A DNA stretch of 64,000 bases, from positions 3,812-67,811 of the forward strand of contig CAJAVM010000008.1 of assembly GCA_903945435.1 (NCBI GenBank). The letters are read 5' to 3'. The DNA comes from an uncultured bacterium (GTDB lineage Bacteria; Patescibacteriota; Patescibacteriia; Patescibacteriales; UBA12465). The notes below the pieces were generated by a model that searched no databases, was not told the origin of the DNA, and saw only the letters and a list, made by a program, of their open reading frames with translations. Of this stretch, positions 55,659 through 63,454 are shown piece by piece. The position numbers and the translations under genes were made by a program. Positions within the stretch are counted from its first letter, which is position 1. Each line of letters opens with the position of its first letter.

Positions 55659-55857
55659 GATTATGGATTTAAGTGGTGAATTTTTAAAGTTCTTTTATTT
55701 TTGAGCCATTTTTGTCCAGGCTTAAGCTAAATTTACAATTTTTATGGCTAAAAGTCAAATTTTCTGCTATATTAACAGCATTCCCACTATTATTTTAGAT
55801 AAATGAAGAAAAATCGTTTATTATCGTATTAAAAAATAACGGCCTTGTGTTTTGTTT

Positions 55858-56439
55858 ATGATAACTAACTTAGACTTAGAAGAAAAAACCGACGAAGAAT
55901 TAGTAATTATCATTCTGGAAAATCAGAATGCTTTTTCTCTTGTTGTTGATAGGTATAAAGATAAGCTTTTGCGTTATATACGTCGTATTTCTAGCGTTAG
56001 TGTAGAGGAGTCTGAAGATATGCTACAAAATATTTTTATTAAAGTTTATCTTAATCTTAATGAATTTGATGATAGTTTAAAATTTTCTTCTTGGGTATAT
56101 CGTATTGCTCATAACGAAGTAATCGATAATTATCGTAAGCGTAAATCTCGTCCGCAGTTAATGGATGTAGATATTAAAGATAGTTACGTGAAAGAGCTCG
56201 CGGGCGATACTAATATTCTTGAAGAATTATCACGTGAAGAATTGAAGTGTGAAATTTCTGAGGCGATAAATAAGTTAGATTTAAAATTCCAAGAAATTAT
56301 AATTTTAAAATATATTGAAGAAAAAGATTATCAGGAAATATCTGATATTATTAAGAAGCCGCTCGGTACGGTTGCCTCAAGAATGAATAAGGCAAAAGCG
56401 GAATTAAAAAAAGTTTTAGTTCACAAAAATTTTAGTTAA
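55858..56439 (+). CDS. ECF-type RNA polymerase sigma-70 family factor
   Basis: Region 2 (F-S-S-W-V-Y-R-I-A-H-N-E-V-I-D-N-Y-R-K-R) and region 4 (Y-Q-E-I-S-D-I-I-K-K-P-L-G-T-V-A-S-R-M-N-K-A-K). The ORF track starts at TTG 55852; ATG 55858 is preferred. Confidence 0.85.
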   Translation: MITNLDLEEKTDEELVIIILENQNAFSLVVDRYKDKLLRYIRRISSVSVEESEDMLQNIFIKVYLNLNEFDDSLKFSSWVYRIAHNEVIDNYRKRKSRPQLMDVDIKDSYVKELAGDTNILEELSREELKCEISEAINKLDLKFQEIIILKYIEEKDYQEISDIIKKPLGTVASRMNKAKAELKKVLVHKNFS

Positions 56440-56443
56440 AAAT

Positions 56444-57199
56444 ATGGAAACTAAAAATCTCGGTGAGAAAATCTTGCAAACAATACAAGAGCAAAAAATT
56501 AAGCCCAAGGGGCGTTGGTATTTTTTGTTGAAAAATTATTTTATCTGGGCAATTGGTGGTCTAGCTTTGTTAGCAGCGGGCGCCGCCTTATCGGTAATGA
56601 TTTATTTCTTCCGTTACAATGATTTTGGAATGAGAGGAGAAATTAATAAAAGTTTTGCAGAAATGCTTATTTTAACCATGCCATATCTTTGGATAGTTTG
56701 TTTAGGAATTTTTGTTTTCGTTGTTTATTATAATTTAAAACATACTAAAACAGGGTATCGTTATCCTATTTGGATTATTATTACAGTTGCTATTGTAACT
56801 AGTTTAATTTTAGGCGGCTTGTTTACTATCGCTGGTTGGGGAGAGAGGCTAGATGAAGTTTTAGAAAAACGTACGCCGATGTATGGTGAAATGATGAATC
56901 CTCATATAAATTTTTGGTCTAATCCTGGAGAGGGAAGATTAGTTGGTATAGTTTCAGGCATAGCTACAAAAGAAGAATTTAATTTAGTTGATAAGGATGA
57001 TAAAGAATGGGTAATTTATATTTCTGAGAGAGAGTTAAAATTTCCGCTTGAAATTGGCCAGCCGATTCGTCTTTTGGGAGAAAAAAAATCTGAGGTCGAA
57101 TTTGAGGTAAACAGGATAATGCCCATGACTCCAGGTAGGGGATTTTTTAAACATATGGGCCCCGGTGATCATCCGCCGATAATGAAGAAAAATTTTTAG
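56444..57199 (+). CDS. Four-TM membrane protein downstream of the ECF sigma (candidate anti-sigma/partner)
   Basis: 251 aa. Starts 4 nt after the sigma-factor stop. Four hydrophobic segments followed by a ~120-aa soluble C-terminal domain. No zf-HC2 motif seen. Confidence 0.5.
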   Translation: METKNLGEKILQTIQEQKIKPKGRWYFLLKNYFIWAIGGLALLAAGAALSVMIYFFRYNDFGMRGEINKSFAEMLILTMPYLWIVCLGIFVFVVYYNLKHTKTGYRYPIWIIITVAIVTSLILGGLFTIAGWGERLDEVLEKRTPMYGEMMNPHINFWSNPGEGRLVGIVSGIATKEEFNLVDKDDKEWVIYISERELKFPLEIGQPIRLLGEKKSEVEFEVNRIMPMTPGRGFFKHMGPGDHPPIMKKNF

Positions 57200-57275: not shown

Positions 57276-57737
57276 ATGAAAAAAGATACTTTGTTAAAAG
57301 GTGCGGCCGTAATAGGAGCAATTGCCTTGATGGCTGGAGGAATGGTTGCGGTTGATGCTGCTGTTAATGATGCGACTGTTAAAAATTTAAATACTAATAG
57401 TGGAGTTCAGGGTCAAAGATTAGGATCCGGCAAAAATCTAAATGAAGCTGATAGAGCCGCCTACCAAGCTGATAGAGAAGCAAGACGAACTGCAGTAACC
57501 GCTGCTTTGAATGCTAATGATTATGCTGCCTGGGTAAAGGCTGAAGGTGCAACAAGCCCAATGGCTACTAAAGTTACCGAAGCTAATTTTGCTAAATTTG
57601 TTGAAGCTCATAAACTAATGGATCAAGCAAGAACTATCTTTACTGATTTAGGCTTAGAAAATGGTGAAGGTAAAGGGATGGGAATGGGCCATGGTTTAGG
57701 TATTGGTGCTGGTACCGGAAGAATGATGAATAAATAA
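57276..57737 (+). CDS. Secreted or membrane-anchored Ala-rich protein with Gly/Met/His-rich C-terminal tail
   Basis: 153 aa. N-terminal hydrophobic signal/anchor, and the tail G-E-G-K-G-M-G-M-G-H-G-L-G-I-G-A-G-T-G-R-M-M. Confidence 0.6.
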   Translation: MKKDTLLKGAAVIGAIALMAGGMVAVDAAVNDATVKNLNTNSGVQGQRLGSGKNLNEADRAAYQADREARRTAVTAALNANDYAAWVKAEGATSPMATKVTEANFAKFVEAHKLMDQARTIFTDLGLENGEGKGMGMGHGLGIGAGTGRMMNK

Positions 57738-57820: not shown

Positions 57821-60475
57821 GTGAAACTAATGCTTAAGTTTATTATTATGGATAAAATTATTTTCTATCAATTAGCCGCTGATGCAACATTTAAAAAGTT
57901 GCAATCTTCTGTTTCCGGTTTAAATTCCGCAGAGGCTGCTAAACGTTTAGCGGAAAACGGTTTAAATAAATTACCCAAGGAGAGAGCCCTTAATGGTTTG
58001 CGTTTATTTTTTAATCAGTTCAAAAACCCTCTGGTTTTTATTTTAATTGCTGCTTTGATAATCAGTTTCTTCGCCGGGCATAGTTCTGATTCTTGGATTA
58101 TTTTAGTTGTTGTTTTAGTTACCAACACGATTGGGTTCTTGCAGGAGTGGAAAGCGAACAATGCTTTAGAAAAACTAAATAATACCGTTACTTATAAAGT
58201 AAGGACTTGGCGTAATGGAGAGTTAACAATTTGTGAACGGGAAGATTTAGTTATTGGTGATGTGATTGAATTAGCTGCGGGAGATGTTGTTCCGGCTGAT
58301 GCTCGTATATTTATTGCTAAAAATTTAAAAATAAACGAAGCACCTTTAACTGGTGAATCTTTACCGGTTGAGAAAAATATTATTGAAATAAAAAAATCAG
58401 TTCCACTTGCTGAAAGAATTAATATCGCTCATCAGGGGACTGTAGTTGCTGATGGTTTTGGGCGGGCAGTGATTATTGCTGTTGGTCAGGACACGGAGAT
58501 TGGACAGGTTGCTAAGTTAATTAAAGAAACTAGTGATGAATTAACTCCTCTGCAAAAACAAATTAATAAATTTGGTATTCGCCTTGGTATTTTTTTAGTT
58601 GCCGCTAATGTGGTCATCTTTTTTATAGGAGTTTTGTTGGGTCGTGATATTTTTGAAATGTTTATGGTTTCGGTTGTGATAGTTGTTTCAGCAGTTCCTG
58701 AAGGCTTAATTCCGGCGATGACAATTATTTTAGCAATTGGAATGCAACGCTTAGCTAAGAAGCAAGGTTTAGTTAGACGAGCAGTCGCCGCTGAGACCTT
58801 AGGTTCGGTTTCGGTAATCTGTGCAGATAAAACTGGAACCTTAACTCAGGGAGAAATGTTAGTTGATAAACTTATTACTTCTGGAAAAGTTGTTAGCGGC
58901 GGGAATCATTCCTTAGCCCTTAAAATTAGCGTTATATGTAATGACGGCTTAATAGAAAATCCTGGTGATAAATCGGGAGCTTTAAAAGTATCGGGAAATC
59001 CGACGGATAAAGCTTTACTGCTTTCAGGCGCGGCCATTGGTTTATTTCGTAAGGAATTAGAAATATTAGAACCACGATTAGATGAGATTGCCTTTTCTTC
59101 CGATTTAAAAATGATGGCGACTTTAAATGAAGCGGAAGCTGGTGGAGAAATAATTTATGTTAAGGGTGCTCCAGAAAAAATATTAGAATTATCAACAATG
59201 ATGGAAGTTGATGGGTATGAGAAAAAAATTCTTAAAAAAGATAGAGAGGAATTTATTAATCAAATCAACAAATTTACTAAAACTGGAGAGAGGGTAATTG
59301 CTTTAGCTTATAAAACAAGGCCTGGCTCTAAAAGTAAAAATTTAAAACCGTCTGATTTAGAGGGTCTGACGTTATCCGGCTTTTTTTCACTTCGCGATCA
59401 GATACGAACCGATGTTAAGCAAGCGATTCAATCCTGTCGTGAGGCGGGAATTAGGGTGGTTATTATTACTGGCGACCATGCGCAGACGGCGATTTCTATT
59501 GTTAAAGAACTAGGGTTAGAAATAAATAATCATAATGTGATTGATGGCGAGGAATTGGACGAACTTAGTGATCAGGAGCTTAAATATCGTATTAATGATA
59601 TTAGACTTTACGCACGTGTTAGTCCTCATCACAAGTTAAGGATTGTTAATGCTTTTCAAGAAATGGGGCGAGTAGTGGCTATGACTGGCGACGGGATTAA
59701 CGATTCTCCAGCTTTAAAGAAAGCGGATATTGGAGTCGCAGTTGGAAATGGAACTGATGTTGCTAAAGAAACAGCCGATTTAGTTTTACTTGATAATAAC
59801 TTCTTAACGATTGTTGAGGCAGTTAAACAGGGAAGAATAACTTTTAATAATATTCAAAAAGTTATTTTATATTTATTTACTGATTGTTTTCAAGAAATGA
59901 TTATTATTGGGACATCGGTATTTATGGGTTGGCCCTTACCGATTTTACCAGTTCAGGTTTTATGGATTAAATTAATTGAAGATCCTTTACCAGCCGCTAG
60001 TTTAGCATTTGATGTTTCTGATGATGATGTTATGAAAGATAAGCCCAGGGGCAAAGACCAACCATTTTTAACGGTTCAGTTACAAAAAATAATTGCTTTT
60101 TACGCAATTATTATGGATGTGATTGCTCTGGCTATTTTTTACTATTATTTTAAAATAGTTGGTAATATTGAGTTAGCGCGAACGATAATGTTTACAACTT
60201 TGGGCTTTAGTACGATGTTCTATATTTATGCAGTTCGAAGTTTGAAGCGTTCTATTTTTAAAACGAATCCTTTTTCTAATAAGTTTTTGGTTTACGCAAC
60301 TTTATTAGGAGGTGGGCTTATCTTCGCTTCGGTTTATGTGCCGTTTTTAAATCGCCTGTTAAGTACGGTCCCATTATCCGCTTTCGACTGGATTCCCGTT
60401 CTTAGTTACGGTTTATTAGGAGTAATGATTTTTGAAATCGGTAAAAATCTTTTTAGATTAAATCGGAAGAGGTAA
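57821..60475 (+). CDS. P2-type cation-transporting P-type ATPase (Ca2+/Mg2+-like)
   Basis: D-K-T-G-T-L-T, T-G-D-G-I-N-D-S-P-A-L, P-E-G-L in TM4 and a cation-ATPase-N-like start. No CPC motif. The true start may be ATG 57830 or 57848 rather than GTG 57821. Confidence 0.88.
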   Translation: MKLMLKFIIMDKIIFYQLAADATFKKLQSSVSGLNSAEAAKRLAENGLNKLPKERALNGLRLFFNQFKNPLVFILIAALIISFFAGHSSDSWIILVVVLVTNTIGFLQEWKANNALEKLNNTVTYKVRTWRNGELTICEREDLVIGDVIELAAGDVVPADARIFIAKNLKINEAPLTGESLPVEKNIIEIKKSVPLAERINIAHQGTVVADGFGRAVIIAVGQDTEIGQVAKLIKETSDELTPLQKQINKFGIRLGIFLVAANVVIFFIGVLLGRDIFEMFMVSVVIVVSAVPEGLIPAMTIILAIGMQRLAKKQGLVRRAVAAETLGSVSVICADKTGTLTQGEMLVDKLITSGKVVSGGNHSLALKISVICNDGLIENPGDKSGALKVSGNPTDKALLLSGAAIGLFRKELEILEPRLDEIAFSSDLKMMATLNEAEAGGEIIYVKGAPEKILELSTMMEVDGYEKKILKKDREEFINQINKFTKTGERVIALAYKTRPGSKSKNLKPSDLEGLTLSGFFSLRDQIRTDVKQAIQSCREAGIRVVIITGDHAQTAISIVKELGLEINNHNVIDGEELDELSDQELKYRINDIRLYARVSPHHKLRIVNAFQEMGRVVAMTGDGINDSPALKKADIGVAVGNGTDVAKETADLVLLDNNFLTIVEAVKQGRITFNNIQKVILYLFTDCFQEMIIIGTSVFMGWPLPILPVQVLWIKLIEDPLPAASLAFDVSDDDVMKDKPRGKDQPFLTVQLQKIIAFYAIIMDVIALAIFYYYFKIVGNIELARTIMFTTLGFSTMFYIYAVRSLKRSIFKTNPFSNKFLVYATLLGGGLIFASVYVPFLNRLLSTVPLSAFDWIPVLSYGLLGVMIFEIGKNLFRLNRKR

Positions 60476-61849
60476 TTAACGCAATTCATCCTCACTTTCA
60501 ACGACTAAAAATTTACCAGTATACATTCCCATTGAGCAGGAGAAACTAATTTCTCCTGTTTTATTTGGAGTAAATTCAATAATATTTTCTCCTGGTTTTA
60601 GTTGAGTTTGAATTTTTAAACTAGGAACAACAATGGCGCTTGCGCAAGAGTATGGTGCTTCAGCATCAATTATCCATTTAACCGGCTGGTCTTTAAGAAT
60701 GATAAATGAGTTAGGAACATAACCGCGGTTAGTTTCTTTCATGCGGATTATTCTTGAGCCATCTTCTGTTTCTATATTTGAATTTGTACCAGTCGTGTTT
60801 TTAGCACTATCTTTTTCAATTATACTTGAGTTTCCATTAAAAAAAGTCGGCGCTGAAATTTTAAATAAGCGATAGCCGTTAACTAAATTAAATAAACCAA
60901 AGGCAACAACAATTACTCCAGCGGCGATAAAGAAATTTTTTGATTTCTTTTTACCAAGCAAAGCGCTTGCCCCGCCTATTCCTAATAAGCCTGGAGCAGT
61001 TCCTAGGGCGAAGAGCGCCATAATTAATCCGCCGCCCATAAAAGTTCCAGTTCCTAGAGCATAAATTTGCATCGCCTGAGTAAAACCACAGGGAAGAAAA
61101 AAGGTTAAAGCGCCAAGAAGTAAGGGGCTATCAATTTTTACAACGTTTCCAAATTTTTTAGGAAGAGAAAAATCTAACTTATTTAAAGAAGGAGAAATAT
61201 CTAAGAGTTTTAATCCTAGTACTAAAATAACGCCGCCGATAATTAGGGTAATCACTGAATTTAAAATAGAGGACATTTTAAAAGCGGAACCGACTAGACC
61301 TAAAATTCCTCCAAGAATAAAAAAACCAACTACTCGTCCTAGATTAAATAATAAGTGAGGAATAAACTTTTGTTTACTATTTGCTTCGGGATGATTTTTA
61401 GCATAAGTAGCGGCTAAGCTGAAAACTAATCCGCCCACTAAAGCTAAACAAGTAGAGACGCCAGCGACTAGTCCGACCAAAATTGCTAGCGGCCAAGAAA
61501 ATTCTCCTTTAATTAATCCGCCAAAATCAAGAATATTAGTTTGATTTAGGAGCCAATAAAATATTAAAATAGCGGCCGTAACCGAAATAAAATAACTTAA
61601 GTCTTTTTTTCCTCCAGAATCTGAATCGGTTTTTCCTAAACCATAACCAGCAGCTTTTAAATTAGCGGCAATTTCTTCTAATTTAGGTTCATCACCCTCA
61701 TAGGTTATTTCTGCTAAGCCGGTTCGATGATTTACTTCGGCTTTTTTAACATTCTTAATTTCTTTAAGGCTATCTTCGGTTAATATTTCACAGGCTTTAC
61801 AATGCAAACCCGCAATGGGAACGACGAGTTTATTTGCCATATATTTCAA
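60476..61849 (-). CDS. Fusion membrane protein: HMA metal-binding domain + TauE/DsbD_2-like polytopic core + C-terminal cupredoxin-like domain
   Basis: 457 aa. N-terminal G-L-H-C-K-A-C (HMA CxxC), ~7 TM segments including F-F-L-P-C-G-F, and C-terminal ..P-Y-S-C-A-S..F-S-C-S-M-G-M-Y-T-G-K-F-L-V-V-E. Confidence 0.7.
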   Translation of the reverse strand: MKYMANKLVVPIAGLHCKACEILTEDSLKEIKNVKKAEVNHRTGLAEITYEGDEPKLEEIAANLKAAGYGLGKTDSDSGGKKDLSYFISVTAAILIFYWLLNQTNILDFGGLIKGEFSWPLAILVGLVAGVSTCLALVGGLVFSLAATYAKNHPEANSKQKFIPHLLFNLGRVVGFFILGGILGLVGSAFKMSSILNSVITLIIGGVILVLGLKLLDISPSLNKLDFSLPKKFGNVVKIDSPLLLGALTFFLPCGFTQAMQIYALGTGTFMGGGLIMALFALGTAPGLLGIGGASALLGKKKSKNFFIAAGVIVVAFGLFNLVNGYRLFKISAPTFFNGNSSIIEKDSAKNTTGTNSNIETEDGSRIIRMKETNRGYVPNSFIILKDQPVKWIIDAEAPYSCASAIVVPSLKIQTQLKPGENIIEFTPNKTGEISFSCSMGMYTGKFLVVESEDELR

Positions 61850-61876
61850 TCTAGTTATTTTTATTTTTAGGTCTAA

Positions 61877-62149
61877 TTATTTAGAAGCTAATTTATTTAC
61901 TTTAAGAATTTCATCTAGCATCTTAGTTTTTAATTTTTCATTTTTCGACGCCATTGCATTTTTAAAGCAAGTATTTAGATGGCGACTGAGGAGCATTTGA
62001 TGAGCTGACTTAAGTAGGCCAATGGCGGCTAGGTTTTGTTGCATAATATCAACACAGTACTCTCCCTCCTCAGTCATAGTGAGTAATTTATCAGTTAGGC
62101 TTCTCGCTTTTTTGAAATTAATTAAAATTTCTTTGGTATCATTTATCAT
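61877..62149 (-). CDS. csoR: CsoR-family metal-sensing transcriptional repressor (Cu-type C-H-C fingerprint)
   Basis: 90 aa counted from M-I-N-D-T-K-E (ATG 62149-62147). Y-C-V-D-I-M-Q-Q and R-H-L-N-T-C give the Cys...His-x3-Cys ligand spacing. The tracked 153-aa ORF is an upstream extension. Confidence 0.7.
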   Translation of the reverse strand: MINDTKEILINFKKARSLTDKLLTMTEEGEYCVDIMQQNLAAIGLLKSAHQMLLSRHLNTCFKNAMASKNEKLKTKMLDEILKVNKLASK

Positions 62150-62168
62150 ATTTTTATAGTTAATCTCA

Positions 62169-62181
62169 ACACCTGGGGTGT
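62169..62181. promoter_or_regulatory. Candidate CsoR operator: inverted repeat ACACC-N3-GGTGT
   Basis: acacctggggtgt is the only GC-rich element in the csoR/rarA intergenic region. It lies 10 nt downstream of the predicted minus-strand -10 box. Confidence 0.4.
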
Positions 62182-62191
62182 AGGTATTAAA

Positions 62192-62220
62192 ATTATACTC
62201 TATTGCTTTTATGACGTCAA
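62192..62220 (-). promoter_or_regulatory. Near-consensus promoter for the csoR operon
   Basis: The minus strand reads TTGACG (62220-62215), 17-nt spacer, TATAAT (62197-62192). Confidence 0.5.
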
Positions 62221-62236
62221 ATGATATATTTAAATT

Positions 62237-63454
62237 ATGATAGATAATACTCCCTTGGCTGCTTATTTCCGCCCTAAAAATCTGGTGGAATTTATTGGTC
62301 AAGAAAAAGCGATTGGAAAAGATACTTGGCTTCTGCAAGCGATAAAAGAAGATCGAGTTCCATCCTTAATTTTTTGGGGGCCGCCTGGAAGCGGTAAGAC
62401 GACCCTCGCTTTTATAATAGCCAAAGAGACTAAAGCAGAGTTTGTTGAATTTAGTGCGACCTCCAGTGGGGTTAAGGATTTAAAAGTTGTCGTTGAAAGG
62501 GCTAAAGAAGGAAAAAGACTGGGTCAGAAAACAATTTTATTTATTGATGAAATTCATCGTTGGAATAAGGCTCAACAAGACGCCCTTTTACCTCAAGTAG
62601 AAAATGGGACGATTACCTTAATTGGGGCAACAACTGAAAATCCTAGTTTTGCTGTTAATGGCGCTTTGCTTTCTCGCGTGAAACTGATTGTCTTAGAGGC
62701 TTTACTAAAAGAAGATTTAGAGAAAATTGTAAAAGGTGCGGCTAAACGTTTAAATATAAAATTAACTAAAGAATTGAGCGGCTTGATTGCTCAAGTTGCA
62801 AACGGAGACGCGCGTAAGGCCTTGAGTATTTTAGAGAGTGCGCATGAACATAAAGGTGAAATTACTACTCAACTCATTAAAGATATAATTAATAAGCCAG
62901 GCTTACTATATGATAAGAATGGCGAAGAACATTATAATTTAATTTCTGCTTTGCATAAATCAATGCGCGGGAATAATCCCGATGCGACGGTTTATTATCT
63001 TACAAGAATGATAAGCGCGGGCGAAGACCCTTTATATATTGCGCGTCGTTTAATTAGATTTGCCTCTGAGGATATTGGACTAGCTAATAATAGTGCCCTA
63101 ATGTTAGCGACCGCGACGTATGACGCCTGTCAGCGTATTGGGGTTCCTGAGTGTGGCGTTAATTTAGCTCATTGTGCGATCTATTTAGCAAAATCACCTA
63201 AAAGCATTGCTGTTTATGATGCTTATACTAACGCTCAGCTAGAAATAGAAAAAAGTGGAAATCTTCCAGTTCCTTTGTATTTAAGAAATGCACCGACGAA
63301 AATGATGAAGGATTTAGATTATGGTAAAAATTATAAATATACTCCTTTGCAGGACGATTCTAATCAAGAATATTTACCAGAGAAAATAAAAGGAAAAAAA
63401 TTTTTTAAGTCGAGCACCTCCTCTTCAATACCGCCTCATCTTAAAACAGCTTAG
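62237..63454 (+). CDS. rarA: Replication-associated recombination protein A (AAA+ ATPase RarA/MgsA)
   Basis: 405 aa. G-P-P-G-S-G-K-T-T-L-A, F-I-D-E-I-H-R-W-N-K and the MgsA C-terminal domain (Y-D-K-N-G-E-E-H-Y-N-L-I-S-A-L-H-K-S-M-R-G). Confidence 0.9.
   Translation: MIDNTPLAAYFRPKNLVEFIGQEKAIGKDTWLLQAIKEDRVPSLIFWGPPGSGKTTLAFIIAKETKAEFVEFSATSSGVKDLKVVVERAKEGKRLGQKTILFIDEIHRWNKAQQDALLPQVENGTITLIGATTENPSFAVNGALLSRVKLIVLEALLKEDLEKIVKGAAKRLNIKLTKELSGLIAQVANGDARKALSILESAHEHKGEITTQLIKDIINKPGLLYDKNGEEHYNLISALHKSMRGNNPDATVYYLTRMISAGEDPLYIARRLIRFASEDIGLANNSALMLATATYDACQRIGVPECGVNLAHCAIYLAKSPKSIAVYDAYTNAQLEIEKSGNLPVPLYLRNAPTKMMKDLDYGKNYKYTPLQDDSNQEYLPEKIKGKKFFKSSTSSSIPPHLKTA

Follow-up and report, generated by a model that had tools for sequence, protein, structure and literature searches.

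A three-domain membrane protein that joins an HMA domain, a DsbD_2 membrane core and a CupA-like cupredoxin domain is, as judged from its sequence and genomic context, a conserved accessory of the copper ATPase CopA and not a substitute for it. Its gene lies in a stretch of 64 kb (hereafter the window) of a draft metagenome-type assembly of 979 kb in 27 contigs. We consider it likely that the organism is a small-genome bacterium of the Patescibacteria type, and that the locus in the window represents the regulator-proximal half of a copper-export (cop) operon that has been split. This degree of confidence applies to the best explanation as a whole, namely CsoR regulation of both units, a fusion protein serving as accessory of CopA, and the handling of Cu(I) proposed below. 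The features of the locus are compiled in Table 1.

Table 1. Predicted features of the csoR-fusion locus (positions in the window)
Feature	Position	Strand	Details
HMA-DsbD_2-cupredoxin fusion	60476-61840	-	454 aa; alternative TTG start 61849 (457 aa)
C-terminal CupA-like cupredoxin domain	60503-60763	-	Residues 360-446 (Cupredoxin_1); C399, C435-x-M437-x-M439
DsbD_2 membrane core	60893-61486	-	Residues 119-316; PF13386, E 1.8e-32
N-terminal HMA domain	61643-61822	-	Residues 7-66; G-L-H-C-K-A-C; PF00403, E 2.3e-10
csoR	61877-62149	-	90-aa CsoR-family repressor; Y31-C32, H57, C61 (x-C-H-C type)
Candidate CsoR operator ATACCTACACCCCAGGTGTTGAGAT	62163-62187	-	Begins 4 nt downstream of the -10 box
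Sigma-70-type promoter of the csoR operon	62192-62220	-	TTGACG-17-TATAAT; 11/12 consensus matches

In a Pfam profile scan the csoR product matched PF02583 (DUF156) with an E value of 2.9e-13 and a score of 50.4 bits (cut-off, 22.8). Its best solved relative was CsoR of M. tuberculosis (2HH7, E 6.4e-8), with YCVD and HLxTC in register, and C32, H57 and C61 aligned with the YC...HLxxC residues of this protein. The C...H-x3-C triad was kept in 17 of the 17 CsoR homologues adjoining the fusion. An earlier note on this DNA had identified the 90-aa ORF as a CsoR-type protein with the Cys/His/Cys fingerprint of Cu(I)-CsoRs and had singled out the conservation of these ligands in orthologues as a point to check; the profile match, the alignment and the homologues upheld both. 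No His was present among the N-terminal 30 residues, hence none at the N-terminal 'W' position. A second-shell Tyr and Glu are a feature of the allosteric network of Cu-CsoRs. Tyr31 directly preceded Cys32, and a D79-E80 pair ('EEIL' in relatives) was located 2-3 residues off the expected Glu register. A 153-aa version of csoR starting at a TTG codon (61877-62338) was rejected, as homologues were 90-99 aa long and started at the equivalent Met.

The predicted promoter was the best promoter-like site between positions 60300 and 62400, in agreement with the earlier proposal. The candidate operator was made of nested inverted repeats, one of the 6-7-6 type (AyACCT-N7-AGGTrT) and one of the 10-3-10 type. 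Its core is ACACC-N3-GGTGT (62169-62181), previously described as a CsoR-type repeat overlapping the start region, and this description was borne out. Of the 11 loci with a close CsoR (own locus not counted), 10 had a related operator upstream of csoR; in the eleventh, only 16 nt of upstream sequence were present. A matrix built from the csoR-upstream sites of these 10 relatives, own genome excluded, was applied to both strands of the 979 kb. The csoR site of the window came first (29.0 bits) and a site at the copA promoter of contig C16 came second (24.8 bits), the next one reaching 18.2 bits; conservation of the operator and its presence at copA were thus computed directly. Both sites were located just downstream of TTGACG-17-TATAAT/TATATT promoters, the copA promoter having the same TTGACG -35 box and its operator site beginning 8 nt downstream of the -10 box.

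The motif ACACC-N1-12-GGTGT occurred six times in the genome, versus a mean of 1.4 in 20 shuffles. Three copies had C/G spacers and were all found at promoters (csoR, copA and a second CsoR-family gene). The three others were discarded: they had A/T-rich spacers and were not listed by the operator matrix, and two of them were followed by a T run. The earlier note had also placed the -35 region in the 8-bp palindrome TGACGTCA. This sequence was indeed present at 62219-62212, but neither relatives nor copA had it in their -35 regions, so that a role as second regulatory palindrome was rejected and its occurrence at -35 is probably incidental. The second CsoR-family protein, encoded on contig C10, displayed a Cys...Cys pattern with no His. 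Its operator-like site, ACACCCC-N3-GGGGTGT, resembled the operator of the window, and cross-talk is possible for this reason.

The regulatory half of the system is ordinary, being another CsoR operon with a well-conserved operator. The proposed system shares with the CsoR copZA/cso operons of M. tuberculosis (2HH7), B. subtilis and S. aureus (copAZ and copXL) a DUF156/PF02583 repressor with C-H-C ligands, autoregulation, a regulon that includes copA and a pseudo-palindromic operator with C/G tracts next to the promoter. The operator in the window has the ATACC...GGTAT frame of the S. aureus site given in PMC10233261. The locus differs from these operons by its nested 6-7-6/10-3-10 operator, by its first structural gene, which is HMA-DsbD_2-cupredoxin and not copZ, and by the position of copA on a separate locus with its own operator copy.

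From sequence we infer that CsoR binds this DNA and responds to Cu(I), and that the operon is expressed. CsoR would repress its own bicistronic operon (csoR and the fusion gene) via the C/G-tract nested inverted repeat. The two genes were separated by 36 nt with no terminator-like site on the minus strand, and are predicted to be co-transcribed. Cu(I) would derepress both units, csoR-fusion and the copA of C16, since the same operator type sits at the csoR and copA promoters. The previous suggestion of copper-derepressed expression of an uncharacterised membrane protein stays the best reading, because the Cu(I)-CsoR ligands are conserved and the operator overlaps the start region, but its second part, a non-ATPase replacement of CopA, did not hold.

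According to that second part, the fusion would be the copper exporter or detoxifier of the organism in place of a P1B ATPase. A CPC-motif ATPase was indeed absent from the 64-kb window, where the neighbour gene (57821-60475), convergent to the fusion gene, encodes a P2-type, Ca-ATPase-like protein. However, the whole-genome search for copA that had been called for revealed a complete CopA at G000:C16:12470-15205(-), scoring 573.5 bits with TIGR01511 (cut-off, 397), with an HMA domain at residues 16-71, the motifs 'MHCSSC' and 'ACPCALG' (CPC motif) in its translation, and an operator of the matching type. Contig C16 was assigned to the same cell by binning, similar G+C content and the shared operator variant. 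The distribution of the fusion among relatives also argues against replacement. Of the 151 sampled genomes of the order, 84 carried the fusion (152 of 401 in the sample of the phylum). In 76 of these 84, the fusion and a TIGR01511 match were located on the same strand and within 4 kb of each other, with copA downstream of the fusion in 67 cases and upstream of it in 9. Only four of the 84 (G016, G069, G109 and G126) were without a listed strong CopA match, and three of these four were fragmentary, with 77-90% completeness. Replacement of CopA by the fusion is therefore scarcely credible. It is this synteny, computed directly, together with the matching operator of the C16 copA, that argues for an accessory role. 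CopA does not seem to need the fusion, since 11 genomes had a strong CopA match and no fusion match.

The usual gene order in relatives was csoR-fusion-(copZ)-copA, which is split in the source genome; no stand-alone HMA gene was found in the latter. In G113, a genome of the same genus, csoR, the fusion gene and copA were contiguous, and its CopA was 74% identical over 901 aa to the C16 protein. The operator of G113 was of a different type, TACCCTC-N5-GAGGGTA, and the copA of C16 carried the type matching the resident CsoR, not that of G113. The split operon may thus be seen as a small natural test of regulon logic, its copA resembling one operon type and bearing the operator type of the resident CsoR. 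Another split form was found in G123, with the order csoR-DUF305-copA-HMA_DsbD_2 followed by a separate gene for a TM-anchored Cupredoxin_1 protein, whose N-terminal anchor consisted of 'MNKKN' and a hydrophobic segment. It is worth mentioning that the C-terminal extension of CopA had a best atlas match score of 0.83, to be taken as a lead only.

The ATG at 61840 is a likelier start of the fusion than the TTG at 61849 because relatives start at the equivalent Met. The composition given in the earlier note (HMA, a DsbD_2-like core of about seven TM helices, cupredoxin) was confirmed by the Pfam domains and by the AlphaFold2 model, which had a mean pLDDT of 82.1 and seven helices; an extra helix (residues 81-100) preceding the DsbD_2 core accounts for the total of seven. 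Databases name homologues of the fusion 'sulfite exporter TauE/SafE family protein'. No TauE/SafE family match was obtained in the Pfam scan at E <= 0.01, which listed only DsbD_2, HMA, Cupredoxin_1 and DUF1129.

Domain identities and ligand conservation were computed directly. In the HMA domain, residues H13, C14 and C17 were invariant in 121 of 121 sequences, and its structural Z values to CopZ and ATPase HMA domains were 10-11.7. In the core, C131 (S-T-C), C251 (L-P-C-G-F) and M274 were invariant and M257 was found in 91%, the two Cys being distributed one in each of two TM helices. The C-terminal domain can be assigned as a homologue of pneumococcal CupA. Comparison with 2MRY/4F2E gave an E value of 5.9e-13 at about 30-32% identity, and the two Cys as well as the CxMxM motif were in register; Foldseek gave a TM score of 0.87 (rmsd 1.4) to CupA, and VIA-align a Z of 14.8 to 4F2E (rmsd 2.1 for 95 residues). 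The four Cu(I) ligands of this domain were all kept in 120 of 121 sequences; those of CupA itself are given as C74, C111, M113 and M115 (PMC5646241).

Loops rich in K/R (4, 5 and 4 K+R) alternated with poor ones (1 and 0) along the fusion, and the model is consistent with a cytoplasmic HMA domain and an extracytoplasmic cupredoxin domain, as is the N-terminal anchor of the separate cupredoxin in G123. With this predicted topology, the HMA domain would capture Cu(I) in the manner of a tethered CopZ, the 7-TM core would provide a Cys131/Cys251/Met274 site (plus Met257) inside the membrane, and the outward CupA-like domain would bind Cu(I) by a Cys2Met2 site. The fusion would in this way pass or hold Cu(I) at the membrane and its outer face and limit the re-entry of copper exported by CopA. 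As far as the direction and nature of copper handling can be inferred, relaying or holding Cu(I) at the membrane alongside CopA is the most likely function. A more far-reaching version is possible, if doubtful: the fusion might be a self-contained, ATP-independent trans-membrane relay, with Cu(I) moving by ligand exchange from the cytoplasmic CxxC to an intramembrane Cys2Met2 site and on to the outward Cys2Met2 cupredoxin. It would then represent a new class of copper conduit, widespread in Patescibacteria and parallel to CopA, and the pneumococcal CupA chaperone might have evolved from it.

The membrane core allows a different interpretation based on redox maintenance. Like CcdA, DsbD and ScsB, it would take electrons from the cytoplasm and pass them through Cys131 and Cys251, keeping Cys399 and Cys435 reduced, so that the outward domain would serve outside the cell as a sponge or guard for Cu(I), comparable to CopL, with no copper passing through the fusion. 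The strong Pfam DsbD_2 match is consistent with this scheme, and so are the two invariant Cys, which stand in separate TM helices as they do in CcdA. The top Foldseek match of the TM-only model was also CcdA (5VKV); however, this match was weak (E 0.29, prob 0.90, TM 0.42-0.46), with none at E <= 0.001. VIA-align against 48,161 chains returned only matches of the helical-hairpin type (Z <= 8.3), among which 5VKV was not listed, a profile search of the core against PDB sequences gave 0 matches, and a fold search with the full fusion model found matches to the two soluble domains only. Moreover, the invariant Met274 and the frequent Met257 suggest that the core ligates a metal through thioethers and does more than exchange disulfides, it is not obvious what a cytoplasmic HMA domain would contribute to electron input, and a weak match of the core to ArsG (E 1.3e-5), an efflux permease family by its NCBIfam name, shows that relatives can be permeases. 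On the other side, the cysteines of CupA are described as oxidisable when reducing Cu(II), with an unknown source of electrons for re-reduction (PMC5646241), and CopL is an example of an extracellular, CsoR-regulated copper binder (PMC10233261). Taken together, redox maintenance appears rather unlikely as the function of the fusion.

The weak ArsG match, with those of the HMA domain to MerP, MerTP and ZntA models, could also point to a system of the MerT/MerP or ArsG kind, handling thiophilic species other than copper (Hg, Ag, Cd or organoarsenicals). All these matches were far below cut-offs, whereas the regulator has the C-H-C ligand set of the Cu(I) type, the nearest relative of the C-terminal domain is the Cu(I) chaperone CupA, whose ligands it retains, the fusion is constantly accompanied by an ATPase of the copper type (TIGR01511), and no mer or ars genes were found in the loci examined. 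Such a specificity is very unlikely.

Several known systems share parts of this architecture. ScsB has reportedly been linked to copper tolerance. The fusion has in common with CcdA, DsbD and ScsB the Pfam superfamily DsbD_2 and two TM helices with one conserved Cys each, but differs from them by the lack of a thioredoxin-fold partner domain, by its conserved core Met, by the extra N-terminal helix that is predicted to put the HMA domain in the cytoplasm, and by the weakness of the structural match. The superfamily to which the core belongs is one of electron (thiol-disulfide) transporters, for which metal transport is not the default function. Membrane proteins of the COG2836 type also combine HMA and DsbD_2, with predicted CsoR control and occasional linkage to copA, and were placed by purely computational evidence in the CsoR meta-regulon of human-gut Firmicutes; they carry DUF2318, and a cupredoxin is not mentioned in the available part of that report (PMC4938975). 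This report apart, our literature search found no study of the HMA-DsbD_2-cupredoxin architecture. CopL of S. aureus (copXL/copBL) is another membrane-tethered, outward copper binder that is CsoR co-regulated with a P1B ATPase, and a role in preventing (re)uptake of copper has been proposed for it (PMC10233261). Unlike the fusion, it is a lipoprotein of unrelated fold, with neither TM core nor cytoplasmic HMA domain.

The value of these observations lies in the fusion: it is widespread, almost always found beside copA and invariant in every candidate copper ligand, and it is labelled as a sulfite exporter. It suggests that small-genome bacteria lacking an outer membrane supplement export by CopA with an outward-facing stage of Cu(I) binding. 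It also brings together two lines so far treated apart, the cupredoxin chaperones of the CupA type and the DsbD-like membrane cores that have been tied to copper tolerance.

The cupredoxin fold, its sequence and the Cys...Cys-x-Met-x-Met ligands are shared with the copY-cupA-copA operon of S. pneumoniae (CupA, 4F2E/2MRY; N-terminal cupredoxin of CopA, 4F2F), as is the cop-operon setting beside copA, and the split form of G123 has a single-TM anchor. In contrast, the regulator is CsoR instead of CopY, the cupredoxin follows an HMA domain and a 7-TM DsbD_2 core instead of a single N-terminal anchor, and CopA (C16) starts with an HMA domain, with no Cupredoxin_1 match. According to the 2013 structure paper, CupA is said to serve CopA from the cytoplasmic side. 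CupA has likewise been described as a donor of Cu(I) to CopA on the inner side of the cell (PMC5646241), whereas the cupredoxin of the fusion is predicted to lie outside.

A search of the whole assembly for the HMA family gave two matches: the HMA-DsbD_2-cupredoxin protein encoded downstream of csoR (hereafter the fusion) and a 911-aa ORF on contig C16. Against the copper-ATPase model TIGR01511 (cut-off 397), the latter reached 573.5 bits. Its upstream region contained, in order, a terminator-like hairpin, the promoter TTGACG-17-TATATT and, starting 8 nt past the -10 box, an operator in the form of a 19-bp perfect 6-7-6 repeat, ACACCT-N7-AGGTGT. A canonical copA thus lies elsewhere in the genome under the same operator type, and by the earlier note's own reasoning this refutes its claim that CsoR controls the fusion instead of a CopA ATPase; the sensor, the operator and the copper control of that interpretation were retained. 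The genome-wide search that it had proposed for copA and copZ yielded this copA and no stand-alone HMA (CopZ-like) gene in the assembly (PF00403, E <= 0.001).

Features of the csoR-fusion locus (window coordinates) and of copA on contig C16
Feature	Location	Strand	Basis or remark
csoR promoter, TTGACG-17-TATAAT	62220-62192	-	best sigma-70-like site in region, 11/12 matches
Inverted repeat ACACC-N3-GGTGT	62181-62169
Operator site found by matrix	62187-62163
csoR, 90 aa	61877-62149	-	PF02583 metal-sensitive repressor family, E 2.9e-13
Fusion, 454 aa (457 aa from TTG)	from ATG 61840 (TTG 61849), 36 nt downstream of csoR	-	Pfam domains
HMA domain of fusion	residues 7-66		Pfam
DsbD_2 membrane core of fusion	residues 119-316		Pfam, E 1.8e-32
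Cupredoxin_1 domain of fusion	residues 360-446		Pfam
P2-type, Ca-ATPase-like pump	57821-60475		convergent to fusion; family match
MgsA/RarA-type AAA+ ATPase	62237-63454	+	divergent from csoR; Pfam scan
CopA, 911 aa	C16:12470-15205	-	HMA (M-H-C-S-S-C), E1-E2 and HAD domains, C-P-C membrane motif

Among solved structures, the one closest to the 90-aa repressor was M. tuberculosis CsoR (2HH7, E 6.4e-8), with which its Y-C-V-D and H-L-x-T-C motifs were in register; this identifies C32, H57 and C61 as the Cu(I) ligand triad and, with the PF02583 match, bears out the CsoR-type assignment proposed earlier. Conservation was evaluated on 30 fusion-bearing loci within the order to which the window's genome belongs. 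A CsoR homologue was encoded on the same strand at most 1.5 kb upstream of the fusion in 17 of them (own locus counted), and none was found within the flank at the other 13; Y-C...H-x3-C was kept in 17/17. Twelve of the 17 were close relatives (E < 1e-25), namely the own locus and eleven others.

Promoter and inverted repeat were both present as first described. Judged from sequence conservation, the csoR operator is real, and longer than the ACACC-N3-GGTGT of the earlier note. At ten of the eleven other close-CsoR loci, a clearly related site follows the -10 box and precedes the start codon; the eleventh (L029) has just 16 nt of upstream sequence. Their consensus, ATACCyAyACCCCAGGTAT(AGGTAT), consists of nested 6-7-6 and 10-3-10 inverted repeats. 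A position weight matrix was built from the ten relatives' sites, leaving out the own genome and five loci with a distant-clade CsoR. In a scan of both strands of the whole genome, the window site ranked first (29.0 bits) and the repeat at the copA promoter second (24.8 bits); the third-ranked site reached 18.2 bits. ACACC-N1-12-GGTGT occurred six times in the 979-kb genome, where 20 shuffles gave 1.4 on average, and the three copies with C/G-rich spacers were at the promoters of csoR, copA and a second CsoR-family gene. The S. aureus CsoR site, as quoted in the available text of PMC10233261, has the same ATACC...GGTAT frame; the regulatory unit described here is an unremarkable representative of the CsoR class. 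Very probably, then, csoR-fusion and copA are both derepressed through Cu(I)-CsoR. At the -35 box, the palindrome TGACGTCA was also present, but it was conserved neither in the relatives nor in the -35 region of copA and was judged incidental.

Within the order, 84/151 sampled genomes encoded the fusion, as did 67/114 when only those of high quality are counted; across the phylum it was present in 152/401 sampled genomes. Comparison of its coordinates with TIGR01511 matches in the 84 genomes showed a same-strand CopA-type match within 4 kb in 76, downstream of the fusion in 67 and upstream in nine. The eight exceptions (G000, the window's own genome, and G013, G016, G032, G069, G091, G109 and G126) include several fragmentary genomes. 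Eleven genomes had a strong CopA match and no fusion match. In relatives, the fusion is thus an operon partner of copA: the order is csoR-fusion-copA in G132, G124 (gaps of 1-4 nt in both) and G113, and fusion-copZ-copA in G081. A variant cop operon in G123 (locus L039, G123:C1:606000-613000) comprises genes for a csoR-like protein (95 aa), a DUF305 membrane protein, CopA, an HMA_DsbD_2 protein (338 aa) and a separate 141-aa cupredoxin, anchored at its N-terminus and carrying a Cupredoxin_1 domain; here the fusion is naturally divided. In longer relatives the cupredoxin is present as two or three repeats, and some matches across the phylum lack the HMA domain or the cupredoxin. Such forms indicate a modular architecture with functionally linked parts.

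The cop operon of the window's genome is split and mosaic. Its CsoR and fusion were nearest to those of G132 (E 1.7e-40 and 56% identity), G113 being more distant (E 4.1e-12 and 49%), whereas the relation was reversed for CopA, with 74% identity over 901 aa to the operonic CopA of G113 versus 40% to that of G132. The G113 operator is of a different type, TACCCTC-N5-GAGGGTA; despite its G113-like product, copA on C16 bears the operator type that matches the resident CsoR, which argues that this site is functional and that C16 belongs to the window's genome. HMA+DsbD_2 membrane proteins (COG2836) are predicted members of the CsoR meta-regulon of gut Firmicutes in the available text of PMC4938975, a computational precedent for CsoR control of such proteins. 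Searches of the literature outside subscription journals found no study of the cupredoxin-bearing DsbD_2 form. The system can be described as a cop operon whose accessory is widespread but unstudied; in this genome the operon is divided in two.

All three Pfam domains expected from the first reading were confirmed in the fusion. Its C-terminal domain is homologous to CupA, the Cu(I) chaperone of pneumococci: it matched 2MRY/4F2E with E 5.9e-13, versus 5.3e-6 for the CopA metal-binding domain 4F2F, and superposed on CupA with a TM of 0.87 and an rmsd of 1.4 Å over 93 columns (Foldseek) and a Z of 14.8 (VIA-align). C399 and C435-x-M437-x-M439 aligned with the CupA ligands, given as C74, C111, M113 and M115 in the available part of PMC5646241. 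Conservation was assessed with the 120 homologues listed (43-86% identical) and again on 60 sequences. Among the fusion and these listed homologues (121 sequences), the HMA residues H13, C14 and C17 and the core residues C131 (S-T-C), C251 (L-P-C-G-F-T-Q-A-M-Q) and M274 were invariant, M257 was kept in 91% and the four cupredoxin ligands in 120/121. The AlphaFold2 model (mean pLDDT 82.1, pTM 0.64) has seven membrane helices, K/R-rich loops (4, 5 and 4 K+R) alternate with K/R-poor ones (1 and 0), no signal sequence was found at the N-terminus and the separate cupredoxin of G123 begins with a basic, hydrophobic anchor; together these features point to an HMA domain inside the cell and a CupA-like domain outside.

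Cu(I) could be handed on through exchange of ligands, moving from the HMA domain on the cytoplasmic side via the intramembrane Cys/Met residues to the external CupA-like site; alternatively, the fusion could retain Cu(I) on the outer face after export, curbing its re-entry. We propose such roles tentatively. The main and less probable rival, a CcdA-like electron conduit keeping the external cysteines reduced, is favoured by the DsbD_2 assignment of the core and by the reductant for the CupA cysteines being noted as unknown in the available part of PMC5646241; metal relay is favoured by the methionine conservation and by the HMA domain on the cytoplasmic side. Modelled alone (pLDDT 80.4), the core had CcdA 5VKV as best Foldseek match, a weak one (E 0.29, prob 0.90); neither VIA-align nor a profile search of PDB sequences yielded a useful match, and the NCBIfam match to the ArsG permease family was weak (E 1.3e-5, far under cut-off). 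Homologues are named "sulfite exporter TauE/SafE" in databases, a name that no TauE family match in the Pfam scan supports.

In the C16 CopA, residues 757-775 form an additional hydrophobic helix, followed by a ~135-aa C-terminal extension common to the 1023-aa CopA of G113; C16:12470-13000 (locus L035 474-1001) is the region concerned. The extension had no Pfam match and a weak lead only (0.83) to MacB periplasmic-core-like domains in an Atlas look-up; it may lie outside the cell.

The second CsoR-family gene (G000:C10:30400-31020, locus L036; 80 aa, PF02583 E 8.5e-16) encodes a Cys...Cys protein without His at the ligand position, resembling the CstR-like x-C-x-C class. The repeat ACACCCC-N3-GGGGTGT, perfect and of 7-3-7 form, overlaps the promoter of this gene, and a thioredoxin gene (E 1.9e-31) followed by a Glu/Leu/Phe/Val dehydrogenase gene lies downstream. 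The protein may sense thiol or persulfide stress, with an operator that would be a sister of the csoR site.

A MgsA/RarA-type AAA+ gene also occurs near the csoR operon of G132 (locus L037 6833-7003), indicating that the upstream flank is syntenic and the copA side rearranged. In G132, of the same genus, copA occupies the slot downstream of the fusion, where the window has the P2-type ATPase. The P2-type ATPase and fusion genes abut at 60475/60476 with adjacent stop codons and zero intergenic space, and no terminator-like site was found between them. Between this ATPase gene and those of an ECF-type sigma factor and a membrane protein (55852-57199), a 153-aa protein without Pfam match is encoded at 57276-57737 (+); its N-terminus resembles a signal peptide and its tail, GMGMGHGLGIGAGTGRMM, is rich in Gly, Met and His, of which Met and His could bind metal.
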